NCBI RefSeq assembly: GCF_028369095.1
Contig: NZ_JAQNDN010000024.1
Coordinates: 89,350-153,349, forward strand
DNA: 64,000 nucleotides
Source of the DNA: Nannocystis radixulma
GTDB lineage: Bacteria; Myxococcota_A; Polyangia; Nannocystales; Nannocystaceae
Reading direction: 5' to 3'
Below, in pieces: positions 2,365 to 35,145 of this stretch. The position numbers were made by a program, and so were the translations under genes. The notes below the pieces were generated by a model. The model was not told where the DNA came from. It did no database searches and saw nothing but the letters and a program-made list of their open reading frames with translations. Positions within the stretch are counted from its first letter, which is position 1; every line of letters begins with the position of its first letter.

Positions 2365-5300
2365 TCAGGGCTTGGGCTGCGCGGGCTCGACCGGGGCCAG
2401 GGCCTTGGGCGCGGCGGGAGTCTGGGCCTTGAGGCGCTTGCGTCGCGGCTCCCACACGGCCTTGGGCCGCAGGGGGATCCGGCCGCCGAACAGCGAGAAG
2501 TAGCGCTGCGCGCCGTCGTTGCCGCCGCCGATGAGGCCGAACAGGGCGCGCCAGTGGAGGCCCTTCTTGACGCCGATGCCGTCGCCCTTGGCGTCGCTGA
2601 TCGCCTGCTCGGTGCGCCACCACCAGCCGAGGCCGGGGCCGATGACCTGGGTCTCGCGGCCGCGGCCGCGCTGACGGGCCCAGATGGCCGGCACGACCTG
2701 CGTGACGCGGCCCTTGCGGCGGATGTCCCACCACAGGAAGGCGCCGAAGGTGCCCGAGTTCTCGCCGCGCTCGATGTGCCAGATCAACGGGAACTGGACC
2801 CAGTCGTTGTCCTGGCCGCGCCGGCGCTGGAACACCAGGGCCGGGAAGACGCTGGTGAAGCTGGTGTCCTTGGCCCAGTTGTTGTCGCGCAGGAACAGCG
2901 GCAAGAGCCAGGTCATGCGCCGCTCGGCGTAGCTGTGCGCGGTGTAGAAGAGCGGCGGCGCGACCACGGTGGTCACCTTGTGCGGTCGGCGGAAGTTCCA
3001 GACCATCAGCCCGGCCTGGAACCACCGGTAGTCCTCGCGGTGGGCGCCGACGAACAGCGGCGGCAGCACGACGGTAGTGCTGCGATCCTTGGTGCGGTAG
3101 GCCTTGCGGAAGAACAGCGGGAAGAAGACGGTGGTCTTGAACTGCCGCGTGGTCGTGTGGCCGAAGTTGAGCGCGTACCAGGTGAGGCGCTCGCCGGGCC
3201 GCACGTTGGCGCCGCCCAGCAAGGTGAGGAACCGGCGGCCGCCCGGGTCCTTGTCGAAGTAGTAGAGCATCAGCGCGCCGTGGCTGGTGCGGCCCTTGCC
3301 GTCCTTGCCGTAGAGGAAGAACGGCCACGAGCCCCACAGCGTGTAGCGGCAACGATCGTCGTCCTCCTCGCGGAAGCCGCACTTCTGGTAGCGGAACGCG
3401 AACGGGACCACGCCGGTGAAGCGGTAGTTCTTGTGCAGGCGGAAGAAGTCGAAGAAGATCGGCGGAGCCAGGCTGAAGCGCGTGAAGTTGAACTGACCCT
3501 TGACGCCGACGACGAACGGGAACGCGACCCACGAGCGGCGACCGTTGGCCCGCTGACGGTCGAACCAGAACGGCACGGCGATGGTGGTGTGCTCGTTCTT
3601 CCCCTTGTCGGCCTGGTGGAAGATGAGCGGCAGCGAGATCAGGCGCCGCTTCTCCGCCGAGTCCATCCACCAGTAGACCGGGACCACACCGGCGTTGAGC
3701 GAGGTGCGGGTGAGGCGGTGGAACGCCGGGCCGGCGATGAGCGTGTGCGTGCGCCGGACCTTGTCGCGGCTGTAGAAGAACGGCAGCAGCAGGCCGGCGT
3801 CGACGTCGATGCCCTCGGGCTGGCGCTGGCGGAAGTAGAACGGGACGACCGCGAGGTTCTTGCGCGGCTTCTCGCCGCGCGTGGCGGTCCGCCAGACCAG
3901 CGGCGACCACATGTCGAGGTCCTCGCTCGGCGCGCGGTGGCGGGCGAACAGCGGCGCGATGACGAGGTTGCTGGCGACGCCGCCCTCGACCTTGCGCCGA
4001 TCGTAGAACACCAGCGGGATCAGGCCGAAGCCGCGGCGGACCGGATCCTTGTAGCCGCGGAAGCCGTAGAGGAGCGCCGCGGCCGACCAGGTGCGCTGCT
4101 CCGGCGTGCGGTAGGCGCCGCCCAGCGGGGTGAGGGTGAGCGTCTTGCCGTCCTTCTGGCGCCGGTAGAAGAGGGGGAACAGCGCGGTGTGGCGCTCGTC
4201 GCCGGCGCGCTTCACGTCCCAGAACAGGTTGAGCACGCCGATCGTGCGGTGGTCGGGGCCCTTGCTGCGGGCGAACAGCGGCGACACCGTCAGCGCGCGC
4301 TGGGCCTCGACGTCGTGGACATGTCCGAAGAGCAAGGGCGGGACGATGCCGTAGCGGTACTTGTCGTCGCGGCCGGCGAACACCAGCGGGGCGAGGCCGC
4401 CGTGACCGCCGGACTTGACCTTCTTGGCGTAGATCGGGCCGAGCACCCACAGGTCGCTCGGCTTGGCCGGGTCGGTGTCGCGGCGGTGCCAGAACAGCGG
4501 GGTGATGGTCTGGTACGAGCGGGTGCCGTCGCGGCCGACGAACGCGAGCGGGGCGAGGCCGGCGTCCCAGCGCTCGCCGCGGCGGCGGTAGAAGCCGAGC
4601 ACGCCGGCCGACAGCGTGCGCGAGCCCTTGCCGTCGTAGGCGCTCGGATCGTGCGAGTGGCCGAACAGCGGCGTGACGACCTGGAAGCTCTTGCCGCCCG
4701 GCTCGTTGCGCACGAACGTCAGCAGCGGGGTGATGCCGAAGCCCCAGCGGCCGTCCTTGCCGGCGCGACCGCCTCCGAGCAGGGTGTAGACCCGCGTGTC
4801 CTGCGGGCTCTTGCGCGCGTACAGCAGCGGGACGAACACGCTGCTGGTGACGCCGGCCTTCACGTCGCCGAACTGCCAGAACAGCGGGAACAGCACCCGG
4901 TTGCGCTGCTCCGGGTCGCGGTAGCTGACCCATGGGAACGCCGACCAGGCGACGCTGCCGCGGTCGCGGTTCTCGGAGCGCCACACCAGCGGCGTGGCCG
5001 AGAACAGCTTGCGCGTCGGGGTCTGGTGCGAGAACGTGAGGAGCGGCGGGACGGCCCACGCGCGCAGGCTGCGGGCCTTGTCGCTGCGCTGCACGTACAG
5101 CAGCGTCCACAGGTCCTTGCGGTTGCCGTACTCGCTCGACTGCCAGTGCACGAGCGGCAGCACCGTGTGCCACTTGACCCCGCGGGCCTTGTTCTGCCCG
5201 CCGATGTAGAGCGGGACGCCGACGTTGACGGTGCTCGGGCCGCGGGTCACGCGGTAGAACAGCGGGAAGCCGACGAAGTAGCGCAGGTCGTTGAGCGGGT

Positions 5301-27595: not shown

Positions 27596-28471
27596 CTAGC
27601 CGAGGGCGAGGACGGCGAGGCCGAGGACGACGAGGTAGGGCACGAAGGGGACCACGCCGACGCGGACGAGCAGGACCAGCAGCACGCGCAGGGTGGCGAC
27701 GCCGACGACGAAGCTGACGAAGAAGCCGACGACGAAGGCCAGCGGGTCGACGGCGGGCAGGCCCTCCTTCATCAGGTCGAGCGCCTCCTTGAGCGAGGCG
27801 CCGAGGATGGCGGGGATCGCCAGCAGGAACGAGAAGCGCGCGGCCGGCAGGCGGCCGAGGCCGAGGCCCATGGCGGCGGCGATCGTCGAGCCGCTGCGCG
27901 AGATGCCGGGCAGGATGGCGACGAGCTGGGCGAGGCCGATGAGCAGCGCCTGCAGCGGCCGCGGGACCTCCTGCGGGCGCCGGCGCTTGCGGGTCAGCCA
28001 CTCGGCCAGGCCCAGCATGGCCGCGGTGACGAGGAAGCAGGCGCCGATGGCCTTGGGGTGGTGCTCGGCGGCGATGACGAGGTTCTCGACCGGCGGGGCG
28101 AGGGCGGCGGCCAGCGGCAAGGTGCCGATGACGAGCGCGAGCAGCAGCGCCCGCGCGTCGGTCGGCGAGCTGCCCGAGGGGACATGTCCCTCCGAGCCTG
28201 GCGTATCGGGCATGCGCTCGGGGACATGTCCCGGACGCAGCACGGCGCGGGCCAGCGCGAGCAGGTCGTCGCGGTAGTGGATCAGGACGGCCAGCAGGGT
28301 GCCGGCGTGGACGACGATGTTGAACGAGTGGCCGCCGGCGCCGGCGTCGAGGCCGGCGACGCGTTGGGCCAGGGCGAGGTGGCCGGACGAGGAGATCGGC
28401 AGGAACTCGGCCACGCCCTGGAGGGCGCCGAGGAGGGCGGCGAGGCCGAGGTCGAGCTCGGGGGCGGACAT
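27596..28471 (-). CDS. uppP: Undecaprenyl-diphosphatase UppP/BacA, with ~25-aa loop insertion encoded by two GGGACATGTCCC copies
   Basis: ...GISRSGSTIAAAMGLG... Insertion RPGHVPERMPDTPGSEGHVPSGSS corresponds to nt 28178-28232. Confidence 0.9.
   Translation of the reverse strand: MSAPELDLGLAALLGALQGVAEFLPISSSGHLALAQRVAGLDAGAGGHSFNIVVHAGTLLAVLIHYRDDLLALARAVLRPGHVPERMPDTPGSEGHVPSGSSPTDARALLLALVIGTLPLAAALAPPVENLVIAAEHHPKAIGACFLVTAAMLGLAEWLTRKRRRPQEVPRPLQALLIGLAQLVAILPGISRSGSTIAAAMGLGLGRLPAARFSFLLAIPAILGASLKEALDLMKEGLPAVDPLAFVVGFFVSFVVGVATLRVLLVLLVRVGVVPFVPYLVVLGLAVLALG
28178..28232. repeat. Two GGGACATGTCCC copies inserted in frame in uppP
   Basis: Read directly. Confidence 0.8.
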
Positions 28472-30213
28472 CAGGGCTCTTCACCCGTGTACGTGGCCGC
28501 GCGCTCGATCATTCCGCGCTCCCACAGGTGAGTCTCGATGGCGTGCATGAGCGGGAAGGTGCTGCGGCGGTCGATGGCGCTGATGAAGAAGGCGTCGGGG
28601 CCGGCGTCCTCGCGGCGAGCGGCCAGCTCCTCCGGCGCGAGCAGGTCGCACTTGTTGAACACGACGAGGCGCGGGACCTTGCCGGCGCCGAGGTCGCCGA
28701 GGATCCCCTCGACGGCGGCGCGCTGCTGGTCGCGGTCGGGGTCGCTGGCGTCGACGACGAGCAGCAGCAGGTCGGCGTCGGCGACCTCCTCGAGGGTGGC
28801 GCTGAACGCCTGCAGCAGGGCCGGCGGGAGGTCGCGGATGAAGCCGACGGTGTCGAGCAGGACGACCTCGCGGTCCTCGGGGAAGCGGATCCGGCGGACG
28901 GTCGGGTCGAGGGTGGCGAACAGCTTGTTCTCGGCCAGCACCTCGCTCTGGGTCACCGTGTTGAGCAGGCTCGACTTGCCGGCGTTGGTGTAGCCGACGA
29001 TCGCTACGACCGGGACGTTGGTGCTGCGGCGCAGCGCGCGGCGCTGGTCGCGACGCTGGCGCAGCTCGTCGAGGCGGCGCGTCAAGGCGCTGATGCGCTC
29101 CTTGGCGCGGCGGCGATCGATCTCGAGCTTGGTCTCGCCGGGGCCGCGCCCGCCGATCCCGCCGGCCAGCCGCGACATCGCGGTGCCCTTGCCGACCATG
29201 CGCGGCAACATGTAGCGCAGCTGGGCCAGCTCGACCTGCAGCTTGCCGTCGGCGCTGCGGGCGTGCTGGGCGAAGATGTCGAGGATCAGCGTGGTGCGAT
29301 CGATGACCTTGAGCTCGGTCTCCTCGGCGATCGCGTGCGCCTGCGAGGGCGTGAGGTCGGGGTCGCAGATCAGGAGCTCGCAGTCCTGCTCGAGCGCGCG
29401 GACGATGACCTCGCGCAGCTTGCCGTGGCCGAAGAAGGTGCGCGGGTCGGGCTGCGGGCGCCGCTGGGTCACGAGGTCCATCAGCTGGATGCCGGCGGTT
29501 CGGCACAGCTCGCGCAGCTCGGAGATCCGCGCCGGGACCTCGGGGCCGCCGCCGTGTATCATCAGCGCGGTCGCCTTGGTGCCGCGCGCCTCGGCCCGCG
29601 CGTCGGTGGTCGCGGCGACCAGCTTGGCCTCGAGCTCGCGGATGAAGCCCGTGAAGTCGATCGGCAGGTCGGGCGCGTCGGCCGGCGGGGGCGTCTCCTC
29701 GTCGGGTCGCGTCGACAGGTCGCGGCTGAGCGTCGAGACAGGTACTCTCGGCCAGGTCCGCAGCGTGAACACCTCGGCGGCCCCGGGCGCGGCCGGGGTG
29801 AGGCTGGCGAGGTCGAGCTGGATGCCGGCGGGGCCGCGGTGCACGGCGGCGACGAGGTCGAGGCGCAGCTTGGCGAGGTCGGCCAACTCCTCGCGCGTGA
29901 GCGGGTCGGGCACGAGGTGCGTGACGATCAGGCGGATGCCGCGCAAGCGGCCGAGCGCGCCGCGGACGCGGGCGAACTCCGGCAGGCTGAGGCTGTGCGC
30001 GTCGCCGAGGATGACGCGCTCGACCTGACCGCGGCGGTCGATGAAGAGGCCGAGCTGACGCCCGAGCTGGTGCGAGAGGTCGAGCAGGTCGCGCGCGAGG
30101 GCGGCCGAGATGACGCGGTCGGCGGGGACGCGGCGCTCGCCGAGGCGCTGGAGGGCGCGCGACTGGCTGCTCTTCAGGTTGGCGGTGTCGCCGTGGATGC
30201 GGTCGGCGCTCAA
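28471..30213 (-). CDS. hflX: GTPase HflX with ~200-aa N-terminal extension
   Basis: HflX N-domain (..LICDPDLTPSQAHAIAEETELKVIDRTTLILDIF..). G-domain motifs IVGYTNAGKSSLLN, DTVGF, NKCD. 1-nt overlap with uppP. Confidence 0.85.
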   Translation of the reverse strand: MSADRIHGDTANLKSSQSRALQRLGERRVPADRVISAALARDLLDLSHQLGRQLGLFIDRRGQVERVILGDAHSLSLPEFARVRGALGRLRGIRLIVTHLVPDPLTREELADLAKLRLDLVAAVHRGPAGIQLDLASLTPAAPGAAEVFTLRTWPRVPVSTLSRDLSTRPDEETPPPADAPDLPIDFTGFIRELEAKLVAATTDARAEARGTKATALMIHGGGPEVPARISELRELCRTAGIQLMDLVTQRRPQPDPRTFFGHGKLREVIVRALEQDCELLICDPDLTPSQAHAIAEETELKVIDRTTLILDIFAQHARSADGKLQVELAQLRYMLPRMVGKGTAMSRLAGGIGGRGPGETKLEIDRRRAKERISALTRRLDELRQRRDQRRALRRSTNVPVVAIVGYTNAGKSSLLNTVTQSEVLAENKLFATLDPTVRRIRFPEDREVVLLDTVGFIRDLPPALLQAFSATLEEVADADLLLLVVDASDPDRDQQRAAVEGILGDLGAGKVPRLVVFNKCDLLAPEELAARREDAGPDAFFISAIDRRSTFPLMHAIETHLWERGMIERAATYTGEEP

Positions 30214-30247: not shown

Positions 30248-32026
30248 TCAGGTCTGGTCGTCGTCTTCGAGCAGCTTGAGGCCGACGGCGAGCGCTTGCT
30301 GGGCGCGCTGGGCGGCGTCGCGGCGGCGGGCCAGCAGGGTCTCGGAGCGATCGAGCTGAGCGCCGAGCTCGTCGACCTGATGCTCGAGGCCGGCGATCCG
30401 ACGGTTGGCGTCGGCGGCCGCGTCCTCGGCCTGGGCGCGGCTGTCGGCGAGGGCACCTTGCAGCGCGCCGATCTCGCCGCGGGCGGTCTCCTCGGCCTGC
30501 GCCAGCGTCTGCTGCAGCTGCTGGATCTCCCGCCGCGCCGCCTCCTCGGTGGCGGCCAGCGTCTGGGTCAGCTGGCTGATCTGCAGGCGGGCGTTCTCCT
30601 CGGTCTCCATGATCGTCTGCGACACGCGCTCGCGCTCTTGTTGGGCCTGGTCGCGCAGGGTCGCGATCTGGCCGTGGAGCTGGTTGACGGTGGCGCGGTG
30701 GTCCTGCTCGTGGTCGTCGATCTCGGACTGGTGCTGGCGGGCCAGCGACTCGAGCGCGGCGACCCGCTCGATCTCCGCGTCGGCGAGGACGCGCTCCATC
30801 TCCTGGCGATGCTGCTCGAGCTGCGCCTCGAGGTCGGCGACGCTCTTGCGCGCGCCCTCGAAGCCGTCGACGAGGCTGGTGACCTGACCGCTGGACTCGA
30901 GCAGCTGCGCGTTCAGGCGCTCGCGCTCGGCCTCGAGCTCGGTGATGGCCACGGCCTGGCTCTCGACGCGCTGATGGGCCTCGGCGAGGGCGATGGCGGA
31001 TTTGTCGCGGTCCTGGGCGTTCTGGGCGCGGACGGCGGCGAACTCGGTCTCGGTGTCCTTGAGCTTCTTCTGCAGCACCTCGAGGCGGGTCTTGACGCCC
31101 TCCTCGCGCTTGAGCGCGGTCTGCTTGTCGCGCACGGAGGCCTCGACGGCCTCCCGCGACGACAGGATCTGCTCCTGGGCGGCGAGCACCTGGTTCTCGA
31201 GCTCGCTGATCTGGGCCTGCAGCTCGCGCTGGAGCTTCTTCGAGTCGAGGATGGTGCGCTCGCGCGACTCGAGCTCGTCCTTGAGGGTCAGGATCTCGCG
31301 GCTGCGCGCGTTGAGCTGGCTCTTGAGCTGCAGCACCTCGCGCTGGGCCTTGAAGCCGCCGGCGGCCATGGTGGCGTCGGACATCTCGGAGTCGGGCGGC
31401 GGGACGGCGCCAGAGCCCTCGCGCGGGAGGGCGCTCGAGGGCTCGTCCTGCAGGGCGCTGAAGCCACCCTCGAACTCCTGCTCGAACTGCTGCCGACTCT
31501 CGCCCGTGCGCGCGGGCGGGTCGCGCAGCTCGATCTCGAGGCGTTCTTTCGGGCGCGGGGAGCGGGCCGGCTTGGCGGGCGCGGCGGGCGGGTTCGCGCC
31601 CGAGCCGGGCCGCGCGCCGGGGCCGGGCGAGGCATCGGCGCCGGCTTTTGCCTCGCCGATCGGCAGGACGGGGCGGATCGCCGAGATCAGGCGGCCCTCG
31701 TCGAGCGGCAGGCGCAGGTAGTCGTCGGCGTGGGTCTTGAGGTTGCGGTGCTGCTCGAACACGTCCTCGCTGACGTTCGAGGAGTACATGATGAGCGGGA
31801 TCCGCTTGGTGTCCTCGTGGCGTCGCAGGCGGTTGCACACCGAGAAGCCGGAGGTCAGCGGCAGCTCGGCGCGCAAAAAGATGATGTCCGGCGCGGCCTG
31901 GCGCGCGACGTTGACAGCTTCAGGCCCGTTCTCGGTGATCGTGAACTCGAAGCCGTACGGGGCCAGGATGTTCTTGAGGGTGGCCGGGGTCTTGCCGTCC
32001 GCGTCGATGATCAGCGCTGAGTGCAC
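30248..32026 (-). CDS. FrzS/AglZ-like protein: N-terminal pseudo-receiver domain (Arg in place of the phospho-acceptor Asp) plus Pro-rich linker plus ~350-aa coiled coil
   Basis: ALIIDADGKT...PDIIFLRAELPLTSGF...IPLIMYSS. Then a long heptad-rich Q/E/A/L region. Start GTG at 32026 (alternative TTG at 32035); the long ORF to 32164 is probably overcalled. Confidence 0.7.
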   Translation of the reverse strand: MHSALIIDADGKTPATLKNILAPYGFEFTITENGPEAVNVARQAAPDIIFLRAELPLTSGFSVCNRLRRHEDTKRIPLIMYSSNVSEDVFEQHRNLKTHADDYLRLPLDEGRLISAIRPVLPIGEAKAGADASPGPGARPGSGANPPAAPAKPARSPRPKERLEIELRDPPARTGESRQQFEQEFEGGFSALQDEPSSALPREGSGAVPPPDSEMSDATMAAGGFKAQREVLQLKSQLNARSREILTLKDELESRERTILDSKKLQRELQAQISELENQVLAAQEQILSSREAVEASVRDKQTALKREEGVKTRLEVLQKKLKDTETEFAAVRAQNAQDRDKSAIALAEAHQRVESQAVAITELEAERERLNAQLLESSGQVTSLVDGFEGARKSVADLEAQLEQHRQEMERVLADAEIERVAALESLARQHQSEIDDHEQDHRATVNQLHGQIATLRDQAQQERERVSQTIMETEENARLQISQLTQTLAATEEAARREIQQLQQTLAQAEETARGEIGALQGALADSRAQAEDAAADANRRIAGLEHQVDELGAQLDRSETLLARRRDAAQRAQQALAVGLKLLEDDDQT

Positions 32027-32183
32027 GTGGCTCAAAATATCCGGCCTTGCTCGCTTCCACCAGGGGCGAGGGGCCGGTCCATGGGGCCCTGCATAACGAC
32101 GTTCGACGGGTCGGCGGCGCCGCCTGCGACGAGGCTCTTGCGACGACGATCGTCGCGCGGTCACCGCGAGGTGGGCGCCGGCT

Positions 32184-32561
32184 TCACGCGCTCACGGACA
32201 GGCACGCGGCGACGGCGGCGTGGACGCGGGCGGGGTCGAAGGGCACGTGCAAGTAGGCGGTGGCGCGGGTGCGCAGCTTGCTGTGGCCGTCGAAGACTTC
32301 GGGTGGGACCTCGGAGCCGTACAGGATGAGCGGGATCGCCCGGGTGTCGTCGTCGCGTCGCAGGCGGTTGCACACCGCGAAGCCGGAGGTGCCCGGCAGC
32401 TCGACGCGCAGCAGCACGAGCGCGGGCGCGTGGGCCCGCACCCACGCGACGGCCTCGCCGGGATCGACGAGCACCGCGGCCGGCAGCGAGCGGGCGGCGA
32501 GGATCGTCGCCAGGCGGATCGTCAGCCGCGCGTCGGCGTCGATGATGAGGGCGGACGCCAC
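32184..32561 (-). CDS. Stand-alone pseudo-receiver (CheY-like) domain protein, paralog of the FrzS-like N-terminus, also with Arg at the phospho-Asp position
   Basis: VASALIIDADARL...ALVLLRVELPGTSGFAVCNRLRRDDDTRAIPLILYGS. Start (GTG near 32561) is uncertain. The longer ORF to 32747 runs through a GGACA-repeat cluster. Confidence 0.5.
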   Translation of the reverse strand: MASALIIDADARLTIRLATILAARSLPAAVLVDPGEAVAWVRAHAPALVLLRVELPGTSGFAVCNRLRRDDDTRAIPLILYGSEVPPEVFDGHSKLRTRATAYLHVPFDPARVHAAVAACLSVSA

Positions 32562-32595
32562 CGCGCCGCACGGTACCACGCGACGCAGCGATCGA

Positions 32596-35145
32596 CTAGG
32601 CGCGCGAAGCCAGCAGGCACAGCGCGCCGTGGAGGTCGAGGTCGACCTCGACCTGCATGCCGGCGCGGATCTGGCCGCGCAGGATCGCGTCGGCCAGGAG
32701 CGCCTCGACGCTGCGCGTAAGGACATGTCGCAAGGGACGTGCCCCAAGAGACATGTCCTTTCCGCACAGCGAGACGACGTGGCGGGTGGCGGCCTCGGTG
32801 AGGCGGTAGCGGATGCCGCGCTCGCGCAGCAGGCGGTCGGAGGAGGCGCGGACCAGGCGGGCGCAGATCCGGGCCAGCTGCTCGCCGCCGAGCGGGTGGA
32901 GCACCAGCGGGGCCTCGATGCGGTTCCACAGCTCGACCGGGAAGGCGGCGCGGGCGGCCTCGAGCACGCGGGCCTCGTCGAGGCGGGCGTCGCCGGTGGC
33001 GTCGAGGCAGGTGGCGCCGAGGTTCGAGGTCATGATGATCGCGGCGTGGCGGAAGTCGATGGTGCGGCCGCGGCCGTCGGTGAGGCGGCCCTCGTCGAAC
33101 ACCTGCAGCAACAGCTGGTGGACGTCGCGGTGGGCCTTCTCGATCTCGTCGAGGAGGACGACGCAGTGCGGCTGCTTGAGCAGCGGGTCGGTCAGCGCGC
33201 CGCCCTGCTCGTGGCCGACGTAGCCGGGCGGGGCGCCGACGATCCGCGCGACCGCGTGGGCCTCGGCGTACTCGCTCATGTCGAGGCGGACGAACGCGTC
33301 GGGGCGGTCGAACAGGGCGCCGCACAGGGCCTTGGCGATCTCGGTCTTGCCGACGCCGCTGGGGCCGAGCAGGAGGACGGTGGCGATCGGGCGCTGCGAG
33401 CCGAAGCCGGCGCGGTTCCTGCGGATCAGCTGGGCGATGGCGGCGAGGGCGTGCTCGTGGCCGACGACCTTGCGCGCGAGCTCGGCCTCGAGCTCGAGCA
33501 TGTCCTGGTGGCCCTGGCCCTCGAGGCGCTCGCGCGGGACACCGCTGCGCTCGCAGACGATGTCGACCCAGGTGTCGCGCTGGACGGCGCCGCGGCCCTC
33601 GCGGGCGGTGCGGGCGCAGGCGAGGTCGAGCAGGTCGAGGCTGCGGCCGGGCTGGGCCAGGCCGGCGAGGAAGCGGTCGGACAGGCGCACGAGCTCGGCC
33701 AGGCGGCTACCTGACCCGAGAGACAGGCCGTGCTGGGCCAGCACCGCCGGCGCGGCGGCGGCCACGGCGGCGCGCAGGTCGTCGCCCTCGAGCGGCTGGA
33801 GGGTGACGAGGTCGAGGGCGGCGGTCAGGCCGGGGGCCCAGGCGCACAGGCGGGCCTGACCCTCGGGCGAGGCGACGGCGACGATCGGCGGCTGTCCCGA
33901 AGACCAGGCCTTGGCGAGGGCGCCGAGCAGCGCCGGCGGACCGTCGCCGCCGAGGCGGTCGAGGTCGTCGAGGATGGCGACGCCGCCCTGTTTGGCGATC
34001 GCAGCGAGGTCGGCGCGCAGGCCGTCCTCGTCCTCGTAGCGGGTCGCGGACAGGTAGAAGACCGGTTGGTGGAGCAGGCCGGCGAGGTGCTTGGCGACCA
34101 GCGTGCGGCCGCTGCCGGCCGGACCCACGAGCAGCGGCGGGCGCGGCGAGCGGCGCAGGACGGCGTCGGCGAGGCGCGCCAGCTCGCCCTCGCGGCCGTG
34201 CAGCGGCGGCAGGGCCGAGGGGTCGATCGGGCTCAGGCGGTGGCTGCGGGCCTCGGGCTGAGGCGCGGGGGCCGGGCGCGGCTCGGGCTCGCTGGCCGGC
34301 GCGACCTGGGCGTTGGGACCTGGCTTGAGGGACAGGGCCGACGGACGGCCGGGCTCGGGGCGGGCGGGCAGGCGCGGCTGGGTGCGGGTCGGGGCGCGCG
34401 TGAGCAGGCGCGGCGAATCGGACTGGTCTTCGGGCCAGGTGCGGGCGGCGTCGAGGCGGGCGCGGGCCGGATGGTCTTCGGGCCAGGTGCGGACGTCGGT
34501 CGGTCGAGGCGAGCGCGTGGCAGGCTGGCCTTCGGGCCAGGTGCGGGCGCCGCCGCGGGCGGGGCGGGGCTGGGCCTCGCTGGCGCCTGTCCGCGGGGAC
34601 ATGTCGCCCGTGCGACCGTCGGCGAGCGAGCGGCGGACGGGGCGCTCGCCGGCGGCGACGAGGGTGGACATGCGCTGGACGACGGGGCGCCGCGGCATGG
34701 CTGTCTCGGAGGACATGGCCGATGCGACATGGCGTGAGGGACCTGTCCCGGTGAGCGCGGCGGCCTCGAGCGCGCGCAGGCGGTCGATCAGCAGCTTGCG
34801 CAGGGTGCCGCAGGCGGCGCCGGCCCGCTCGAGCAGCTGGTAGGCGTGCGAGTCGGCGGAGCGGACGAGGGCGAGCAGGAGGTCGAGGTCGGGATCGGCG
34901 GCGCGACCCCCGCGCTGGGTGATCCGCAGGCGCCAGTCGGCCGGCTCGGTCTCGACCTCGGCGTGCAGCTCGTCGACGAGGGCGCGCAGGCGGGCGACGT
35001 CGAGGCCGTGCGCGGCCAGGACGCCCTGGACCGAGTCGGCGGCGCACAGCGAGAGCAGGAGCTCGCACGAGCAGCCGGCCCGCGGCCCGGCTTGCGAGGT
35101 TCGGCGCGAGCCGCTGCGCACGCCAGGCTCCGGGGATCCGATCAT
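32596..35145 (-). CDS. Atypical Clp/Hsp100-family AAA+ ATPase: single Clp-N repeat, ~250-aa disordered insert with RTWPED repeats, degenerate AAA-1, canonical AAA-2
   Basis: AAA-1 has Walker A GPAGSGRT and Walker B ILDDLD. AAA-2 has GPSGVGKTEIAKAL and VVLLDEIEKAH, and ...GARPLRHVL. Confidence 0.75.
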   Translation of the reverse strand: MIGSPEPGVRSGSRRTSQAGPRAGCSCELLLSLCAADSVQGVLAAHGLDVARLRALVDELHAEVETEPADWRLRITQRGGRAADPDLDLLLALVRSADSHAYQLLERAGAACGTLRKLLIDRLRALEAAALTGTGPSRHVASAMSSETAMPRRPVVQRMSTLVAAGERPVRRSLADGRTGDMSPRTGASEAQPRPARGGARTWPEGQPATRSPRPTDVRTWPEDHPARARLDAARTWPEDQSDSPRLLTRAPTRTQPRLPARPEPGRPSALSLKPGPNAQVAPASEPEPRPAPAPQPEARSHRLSPIDPSALPPLHGREGELARLADAVLRRSPRPPLLVGPAGSGRTLVAKHLAGLLHQPVFYLSATRYEDEDGLRADLAAIAKQGGVAILDDLDRLGGDGPPALLGALAKAWSSGQPPIVAVASPEGQARLCAWAPGLTAALDLVTLQPLEGDDLRAAVAAAAPAVLAQHGLSLGSGSRLAELVRLSDRFLAGLAQPGRSLDLLDLACARTAREGRGAVQRDTWVDIVCERSGVPRERLEGQGHQDMLELEAELARKVVGHEHALAAIAQLIRRNRAGFGSQRPIATVLLLGPSGVGKTEIAKALCGALFDRPDAFVRLDMSEYAEAHAVARIVGAPPGYVGHEQGGALTDPLLKQPHCVVLLDEIEKAHRDVHQLLLQVFDEGRLTDGRGRTIDFRHAAIIMTSNLGATCLDATGDARLDEARVLEAARAAFPVELWNRIEAPLVLHPLGGEQLARICARLVRASSDRLLRERGIRYRLTEAATRHVVSLCGKDMSLGARPLRHVLTRSVEALLADAILRGQIRAGMQVEVDLDLHGALCLLASRA

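Follow-up and report, generated by a model that had tools for sequence, protein, structure and literature searches.

FrzS/AglZ-like pseudo-receivers with arginine at the phospho-acceptor position in Nannocystis radixulma

How bacterial pseudo-receivers are held active or inactive is an acknowledged open question (review PMC12632262), and it is raised by two genes of Nannocystis radixulma whose receiver domains carry arginine at the position of the phospho-acceptor aspartate. Both genes lie on the minus strand of a stretch of 64,000 nucleotides, here called the window (RefSeq assembly GCF_028369095.1, contig NZ_JAQNDN010000024.1, positions 89,350 to 153,349 of the forward strand), which has ~72% G+C and whose nearest relatives are N. 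bainbridge, N. exedens, N. punicea, and N. pusilla. The long open reading frame (ORF) is termed gene A, and the short one gene B or RD2; their lengths are given in amino acids (aa).

30248-32026, minus strand: gene A, FrzS-family protein of 592 aa (GTG start at 32026, TGA stop at 30248-30250; ORF, codon bias, and Pfam Response_reg)
32184-32561, minus strand: gene B (RD2), stand-alone pseudo-receiver of 125 aa (GTG start at 32561, TGA stop at 32184-32186; Pfam Response_reg)

The explanation that fits the observations best, and that we consider likely as a whole, is that gene A encodes an orthologous scaffold of the FrzS/AglZ family with a dead and remodelled phosphorylation pocket, and that gene B is a young duplicate of its receiver. 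The family, its loss of the aspartate, and the presence of Arg at the acceptor site of some receivers are already known. Four details appear to be new: the Arg is strictly conserved in Nannocystaceae, it and the pocket Lys exclude each other, the stand-alone duplicate is short-lived, and the GTG transcripts are inferred to be leaderless.

Arginine at the acceptor site of both receivers

The third-position G+C content (GC3) is 0.95 for gene A and 0.96 for gene B, as in real genes, and the GTG codons at 32026 and 32561 were the most likely choice of start. The Pfam Response_reg scores were 52 and 37 bits, respectively, against a curated cut-off of 30.2, and the two receiver domains align over 124 aa, ungapped, with 46% identity. 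To set the acceptor column, the domains were aligned by MAFFT with CheY, PhoB, and FrzS, and a second reading was taken from a profile alignment anchored on CheY. By MAFFT, CheY D57 and PhoB D53 align to R52 in both gene A and gene B, with A53 at this position in FrzS, and the CheY-anchored alignment agreed in placing R52 in the acceptor column of both proteins. The motifs around the site are IIFLRAELP in gene A and LVLLRVELP in gene B, and the codons are the following:

31871-31873, minus strand: Arg52 codon CGC of gene A, aligned with CheY D57, PhoB D53, and FrzS A53
32406-32408, minus strand: Arg52 codon CGC of gene B, same alignments; LLRVELPGTSGF is identical in 5/5 RD2 orthologs

The initial annotation had placed Arg at the phospho-Asp position of both genes, and the two alignments bear this out: the column in which a conserved Asp would have spoken against this reading, checked by alignment to FrzS, holds R52 and no Asp. 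The observation of two Arg-bearing receiver genes is confirmed.

Other residues of the pocket have changed as well. The equivalent of CheY D12 is retained as D8 in both proteins and that of CheY Y106 as Y103, and the acidic E54, two positions past the acceptor site, corresponds to FrzS D55. Both have Ala at the position of CheY D13. Gene A carries Ser in place of CheY T87 and Leu in place of CheY K109, where gene B carries Gly and Val, respectively; the residue just before the K109 position is Arg or His. Of the set that defines a canonical phosphorylatable regulator, D57, D13, and K109 are replaced and only the D12 equivalent is kept. Both genes fall within the class of aspartate-less receivers with an Arg acceptor surveyed by Maule et al. 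2015 (PMC4395418).

Relationship of gene A to FrzS and its family

Word-index protein searches yielded short or truncated proteins and neither a full-length FrzS nor an M. xanthus entry; orthology was examined via genome loci, an exhaustive profile search, and the literature. In a phmmer search against the PDB, the receiver of FrzS came out on top with an E value of 2.9e-17, above every canonical regulator. The AlphaFold2 model of the gene A receiver (pLDDT 92.7) showed the (beta-alpha)5 fold, and its top Foldseek matches were the FrzS structures 2i6f and 2gkg, with TM scores of 0.85-0.91 and a root-mean-square deviation of 1.5-1.6 Å. His92 and Tyr102 matter for FrzS function (PMC1974792), and the loop A97-H98-A99, on the alpha3-beta4-alpha4 face, contacts SgmX (PMC9811614). 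The equivalents in gene A are H93, Y103, and the loop T98-H99-A100; gene B keeps H93, Y103, and A100 on this output face and differs at R99. When the consensus of Arg-type receivers was compared with that of FrzS-type receivers, the most conserved parts were alpha4 (5/8), the alpha4-beta5 loop (5/7), the alpha3-beta4 loop (5/8), and alpha3, and the alpha1 and alpha2 helices were poorly conserved. Conservation on the alpha3/alpha4 side is what constraint on the docking face would be expected to produce.

The likeness continues along the protein, which is divided as follows:

31667-32026, minus strand: pseudo-receiver domain, gene A residues 1-120 (AlphaFold2, Foldseek, phmmer)
31373-31666, minus strand: Pro/Ala/Gly-rich linker, residues 121-218 (composition; pLDDT <50)
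30251-31372, minus strand: coiled-coil region, residues 219-592, including the entry motif KAQREVLQLKSQLNARSREILTLKDELESRE and the C-terminal motif RAQQALAVGLKLLED

The linker, for which no regular structure was predicted, contains 14% Ala, 12% Pro, 11% Glu, and 9% Gly and holds all remaining prolines, none being present beyond residue 211. The heptad score of residues 261-592 was 7.3 standard deviations over shuffled sequences, the hydrophobic periodicity of the tail was about 3.55-3.6 residues, and single-sequence AlphaFold2 predicted long helices at 219-355 and 383-591. On this evidence, the long coiled coil that had been proposed to follow the receiver stands, with a length of ~370 aa. Gene B has no coiled coil and is thus a domain-only derivative, not a full member of the family.

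Full-length BLASTP recovered only coiled-coil segments and was replaced by profile-profile comparison with reversed-sequence controls. Compared on their own with FrzS-type tails by hhalign, the tails gave a probability of 99.2 and an E value of 1.3e-19 over 51 columns; the reversed-sequence controls gave 5e-8 and 2e-9. The two groups share a coiled-coil entry motif (kaQREVlqLKsQlNAKnREiLsLkdELE versus ksdKe.FALrEa.NKKDKEILRLKsELn), and their extreme C-termini align co-linearly (RAQQALAVGLKLLED versus RAKKALGIAQQLLEE). As judged from these comparisons, homology reaches past the receiver and beyond a generic coiled-coil likeness.

Published work places the protein further. Guzzo et al. 2015 (PMC4546325) trace the paralogs FrzS and AglZ to a duplication inside the Cystobacterineae, with relatives carrying a single copy that is closer to FrzS, and state that a functional phosphorylation site is present in none of the FrzS/AglZ family proteins; they list Plesiocystis pacifica ZP_01907822, of 737 aa, as the single FrzS/AglZ homolog. 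Our genome scan returned 76 loci, of which L001-L066 belong to Nannocystis, Enhygromyxa, Plesiocystis, Paraliomyxa, and many metagenome-assembled genomes of Nannocystaceae or Polyangia, and the printed ZP_01907822 sequence is identical to locus L053. This protein has the acceptor motif IIFLRVELP, MRLP at the Lys position, and the architecture and hflX linkage of gene A. It differs in that its receiver is 55% identical, its linker is longer, it has no tandem stand-alone copy, and its gene keeps upstream an extracytoplasmic function (ECF) sigma factor gene and an unannotated, putative anti-sigma gene, both lost in the window. Complete ORFs of gene A orthologs, of 552-779 aa, were found in 60/66 related loci. 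In myxobacteria outside the Cystobacterineae, the FrzS/AglZ-family protein is single-copy, and gene A is probably its ortholog in Nannocystis. The label "FrzS/AglZ-like" of the initial annotation is backed by the best PDB and fold matches, the coiled-coil motif, the upstream synteny in relatives described below, and the published Plesiocystis ortholog.

Against Myxococcus xanthus FrzS itself (MXAN_4149; 2GKG, 2I6F), gene A shares the Asp-less N-terminal receiver, a Pro/Ala-rich linker, a few hundred residues of C-terminal coiled coil with its entry and C-terminal motifs, the His92/Tyr102 equivalents, the acidic residue two past the acceptor, the alpha3/alpha4 face, and, in the relatives of gene A, an ECF sigma gene upstream. 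The receivers are about 30% identical, and gene A differs in having Arg for Ala53, Leu for the pocket Lys105 next to a preceding basic residue, three extra residues after beta4, and Ser for Gly at the CheY T87 position. It is also linked to hflX-uppP and not placed near frz genes, and it has an inferred leaderless GTG start.

Acceptor residue and pocket lysine across the family

The Arg was invariant in all 66 Nannocystaceae-type loci, which are 44-99% identical, indicating that it is not there by chance. Nine more distant loci (L067-L075) have Ser or Cys at the acceptor position and keep the pocket Lys as LKPF or RKPF. To extend this comparison, an exhaustive profile search was run over 1.84 billion representatives, and the catalytic columns were read in 77 family representatives with a single N-terminal receiver. 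At the acceptor position, 34 carried Ala and 33 Arg, and Ser (6), Gly (2), and Glu (1) were less frequent. The pocket Lys was retained in 37/43 representatives with Ala, Ser, Gly, or Glu at the acceptor and in 0/33 of those with Arg, where Leu, Met, Phe, Ile, Val, His, or Tyr took its place.

Arg occurs a second time in a membrane-anchored FrzS-like subfamily, also without the pocket Lys. In this subfamily (loci L078 and L079 near 2860-3451), the acceptor is Arg in P0039, P0043, and P0036, with the motif LRVELP, and Ala in P0041 and P0044; the Arg represents an independent gain. These receivers differ from gene A in being about 170 aa long, with a predicted C-terminal transmembrane helix instead of a coiled coil, and in their context, with genes for a KaiC-like ATPase and another receiver a few kb away.

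The charge of the pocket offers a possible account of this pattern. FrzS has three acidic residues and Lys105, and the Arg-type receivers have D8, D10, and E54 together with Arg52, so that the net charge is equal; we infer that the basic charge may have been relocated, from the beta5-alpha5 loop to where beta3 ends. The phospho-acceptor pocket would be dead, as across the family, and would have been remodelled in Nannocystaceae by Arg52 in place of Ala, Ser, or Cys and by a change of the pocket Lys (CheY K109, FrzS K105) to a hydrophobic residue. The Arg52 side chain may then take over from the Lys in neutralising the retained D8, D10, and E54, giving a self-filled, metal-free pocket that is not a phosphomimic. 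Some points weigh against this account. The Lys/Arg correlation rests on about two independent events. The Ala-bearing membrane-anchored members are already without the Lys, so its loss does not require the Arg, and AglZ-type proteins are without it too in a published alignment.

The opposite view would make Arg52 an active regulatory feature in a domain that still switches, either as a phosphomimic "on" lock or as the site of a reversible modification such as arginine phosphorylation. Its strict conservation in 66 loci and in both paralogs does point to selection at the site, and Maule et al. 2015 (PMC4395418), who counted 63 aspartate-less receivers with an Arg acceptor, raised arginine phosphorylation for such receivers, as well as the idea that the positive charge might stand in for a metal ion. 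Theirs is a survey category with no characterised member, and gene A, which shares its Arg at the phospho-Asp site, belongs to a functionally studied family in which the Arg co-varies with loss of the Lys. Arg is cationic, the opposite of phospho-Asp. Relatives with Ala, Ser, Cys, or Gly at the acceptor site share the same architecture, and this indicates that the Asp was lost before the Arg arose, making a phosphomimic role unlikely. M. xanthus FrzS binds neither Mg2+ nor BeF3, and its D55A variant behaves as wild type (PMC1974792), so its pocket is dispensable. In addition, the coupled loss of the Lys points to structural compensation, and no arginine kinase is evident nearby. An active role of Arg52 is therefore very unlikely in our judgement, and on the same grounds the earlier suggestion that the Arg mimics the phospho-state or is what abolished signalling is not supported, since the family was already Asp-less.

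The search also recovered two-receiver proteins (P0066, P0067, and similar ones) with tandem receivers, a coiled coil, a FrzS-like alpha4-beta5 motif (F.RHSKL..HAD.YL.KPF), and an intact acceptor Asp in each receiver. The phosphorylatable ancestor of the FrzS family may have looked similar.

Genomic setting, gene B, and possible functions

Genes B and A belong to a run of five genes in the same direction, separated by short gaps or overlapping, in the order ClpB-like AAA+, gene B, gene A, hflX, uppP. The neighbours are these:

32596-35145, minus strand: ClpB-like AAA+ gene, upstream of gene B
28471-30213, minus strand: hflX, downstream of gene A
27596-28471, minus strand: uppP, downstream of hflX

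The start of uppP overlaps the stop of hflX. The hflX product has 580 aa, and a long N-terminal extension precedes its GTP-bdg_N domain, which begins near residue 229. The ClpB/ClpA-like AAA+ protein, of 849 aa, has intact C-terminal AAA_2 and D2-small domains, a weak N-terminal Clp_N match, and a Pro/Arg-rich insert with repeated (A)RTWPE(D/G) motifs at about residues 190-240. No motility or chemosensory genes were found within the 20 kb surrounding genes A and B, and a consensus scan for promoters and terminators gave nothing useful.

In relatives, the context is conserved on the downstream side: in L001-L066, hflX follows the frzS-like gene, in tight linkage in nearly all Nannocystaceae loci, and is usually followed by uppP. 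Upstream, loci L007 to L066 have an ECF sigma factor gene and then a ~320-aa gene without a Pfam match, possibly an anti-sigma factor, at about 1.2-1.8 kb from the match. This sigma factor is 40-53% identical to the one encoded ~1 kb upstream of frzS in a Myxococcaceae contig (L077 6302-7027), where cheW and receiver genes also lie nearby, and the shared upstream gene was taken as support for positional orthology with frzS. Weighing against it, the window and L001-L006 are without the ECF sigma pair. The ClpB-like gene adjoins the frzS-like region only in this core Nannocystis group, where it replaces the ancestral sigma factor gene and the ~320-aa gene. We also looked for hflX beside frzS in Myxococcaceae and did not find it there. 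The presence of an ECF sigma gene upstream of frzS-like genes hints at a conserved regulatory link, undescribed as far as could be found. One database protein of N. pusilla, P0001, is truncated to 223 aa with an out-of-frame tail; another N. pusilla assembly (L004 8001-9746) has an intact 582-aa ORF, and the truncation is probably an assembly frameshift rather than a real pseudogene.

By homology with M. xanthus FrzS, gene A most likely acts as a coiled-coil scaffold at the cell pole, with its N-terminal pseudo-receiver as a docking module independent of phosphorylation. The M. xanthus FrzS receiver binds the tetratricopeptide repeat (TPR) protein SgmX via its alpha3-beta4-alpha4 face, and type IV pili are thereby activated (PMC9811614); by analogy, the gene A receiver may dock to an SgmX-like partner. 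Gene A could instead work like AglZ, in a gliding motor, or have some other role tied to its neighbour hflX. It descends from a single copy that predates the FrzS/AglZ duplication, its tight linkage to hflX and uppP is conserved across Nannocystaceae, and in the published alignment it has in common with AglZ-type proteins three inserted residues after beta4 and a hydrophobic side chain at the Lys position. M. xanthus AglZ (MXAN_2991) is likewise a paralogous pseudo-receiver with a coiled coil. However, its coiled coil is about 1076 aa long, against about 370 aa in gene A, a length as in FrzS, and the alpha4 motif of gene A (QHRNLKTHAD) fits FrzS (QHRKLKAHAD) and not AglZ (QHRQTPQAAD) in the same alignment; gene A has neither the very long coiled coil nor the alpha4 motif of the AglZ subfamily. 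The upstream synteny, seen in relatives, is with the frzS locus, the single copy is closer to FrzS according to Guzzo et al., and AglZ, being a product of duplication inside the Cystobacterineae, is not the ortholog of gene A. We therefore regard an AglZ-like or hflX-tied role as unlikely and retain that of a FrzS-like scaffold.

The starts of the two genes have a layout of their own, with the following elements:

32034-32039, minus strand: putative -10 hexamer TATTTT of gene A, 7 nt upstream of GTG (region 32024-32039)
32570-32575, minus strand: putative -10 hexamer TACCGT of gene B, 8 nt upstream of GTG (region 32559-32575)

Among 67 Arg-type genes (the window and L001-L066), the start was GTG in 67/67, and a TAnnnT hexamer stood 6-8 nt ahead of it in 66/67 and 10 nt ahead in the other one. 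A Shine-Dalgarno core was found in 0/67 within the 14 bases from -17 to -4, and C occupied position -1 in 93%. The Ser/Cys-type relatives (L067-L075) have GGAG-type ribosome-binding sites and ATG starts instead. Gene B is preceded by GCTACCGTGCGSCGCG|GTG (S = G or C) in four other species and by GGTACCGTGCGGCGCG|GTG in the window, and the arrangement of TACCGT, 8 nt, and GTG is common to all five; the element resembles the GCTACCCTGCCGCG|GTG ahead of gene A orthologs such as L010 and L012. A -10 box placed for transcription to start at the start codon implies a leaderless mRNA, and the data suggest that Arg-type genes have conserved leaderless GUG-initiated mRNAs and that gene B has the same layout.

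The distribution of gene B is narrow. Outside the window, intact 125-aa orthologs were found only in N. exedens, N. punicea, N. pusilla, and strain RBIL2. In N. bainbridge (L003), whose gene A receiver protein is identical to that of the window, gene B is a shortened and degenerate remnant:

L003 7553-7846: gene B remnant of N. bainbridge, flanked by the ClpB-like and frzS-like genes, with recognisable pieces that include ...TGCAATCGCCCGCGACGGCGACACCCGGGCGATCCCG...

In the species nearest the window, gene B became a pseudogene very recently. In L006, a 166-bp gap lies between the neighbours, with no gene B copy, and none was found in the other scanned loci. Pairwise dN/dS values for gene B were 0.06-0.43, with 0.62 for one near-identical pair, and those for the gene A receiver among the same species were 0-0.15. 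The copy of the window was the most diverged of the five (dN about 0.09; dN/dS 0.36-0.43 versus the others). These values indicate that gene B is under relaxed purifying selection and evolves several-fold faster than its parent domain. Two stretches are stable, from PALVLLRVELP to IPLILY and from PEVFDGHSKLRTRA to VPFD, and the segments PALVLLRVELPGTSGF, VCNRLRRDDD.RAIPLILY, and PEVFDGHSKLRTRA.AYLHVPFD differ by no more than one residue among the five copies. The tandem paralogous single-domain pseudo-receiver that had been pointed out next to gene A is real, and it is under purifying selection.

As to its origin, we favour a duplication within the genus, with rapid divergence afterwards, over an ancient paralog. 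This is argued from the restricted distribution, the character states shared with the Nannocystis clade (TSGF, CNRLRR, EAV, IPLI), and the gene A-like upstream element, and not from the tree; a neighbour-joining tree speaks against it, since gene B branches there outside Nannocystis, as the sister of all Arg-type domains, with 69% bootstrap support. Gene B would thus be a young duplicate, present in part of the genus, that copied the -10-like element (a putative promoter), the GTG start, and the receiver of gene A. Its most likely role would be that of a free copy of the docking domain, with the alpha3-to-beta5 core kept unchanged across species, that modulates or competes for the same partner and that a lineage can lose. 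Alternatively, gene B may have no function, being a remnant of a local rearrangement that is decaying into a pseudogene, and be neither partner nor decoy. We hold this to be a possible, though less probable, explanation. Its confinement to the window and four Nannocystis genomes, its degeneration in N. bainbridge despite the identical gene A receiver protein, the divergence of the window's own copy, and its appearance along with the ClpB-like gene, the insertion of which displaced the ancestral upstream genes, all favour it. Against it, five genomes have a complete ORF of exactly 125 codons, with the high GC3 given above and dN/dS well below 1; the core segments are near-invariant across species; and the -10-like element and the GTG start are conserved.

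A bolder proposal joins the two genes. The pseudo-receiver of gene A would be self-latched, with Arg52 replacing the Lys and fixing the docking face, and gene B, separately transcribed from a leaderless mRNA, would be a soluble competitor that titrates the polar docking partner. We consider this combination improbable; if true, titration by gene B would add a new layer of control on cell polarity or pilus activation. Otherwise, gene A is an ordinary ortholog of a known motility scaffold, the current picture of which is unchanged, and the new details are of modest interest. Few pseudo-receivers have a known ligand, FrzS being one of them, and the occurrence of Arg only where the pocket Lys is gone makes these proteins a natural experiment in which a dead phosphorylation pocket would have been re-stabilised. 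Gene B, with its recent loss in a sister species, may serve as a small test case for domain-level decoys.

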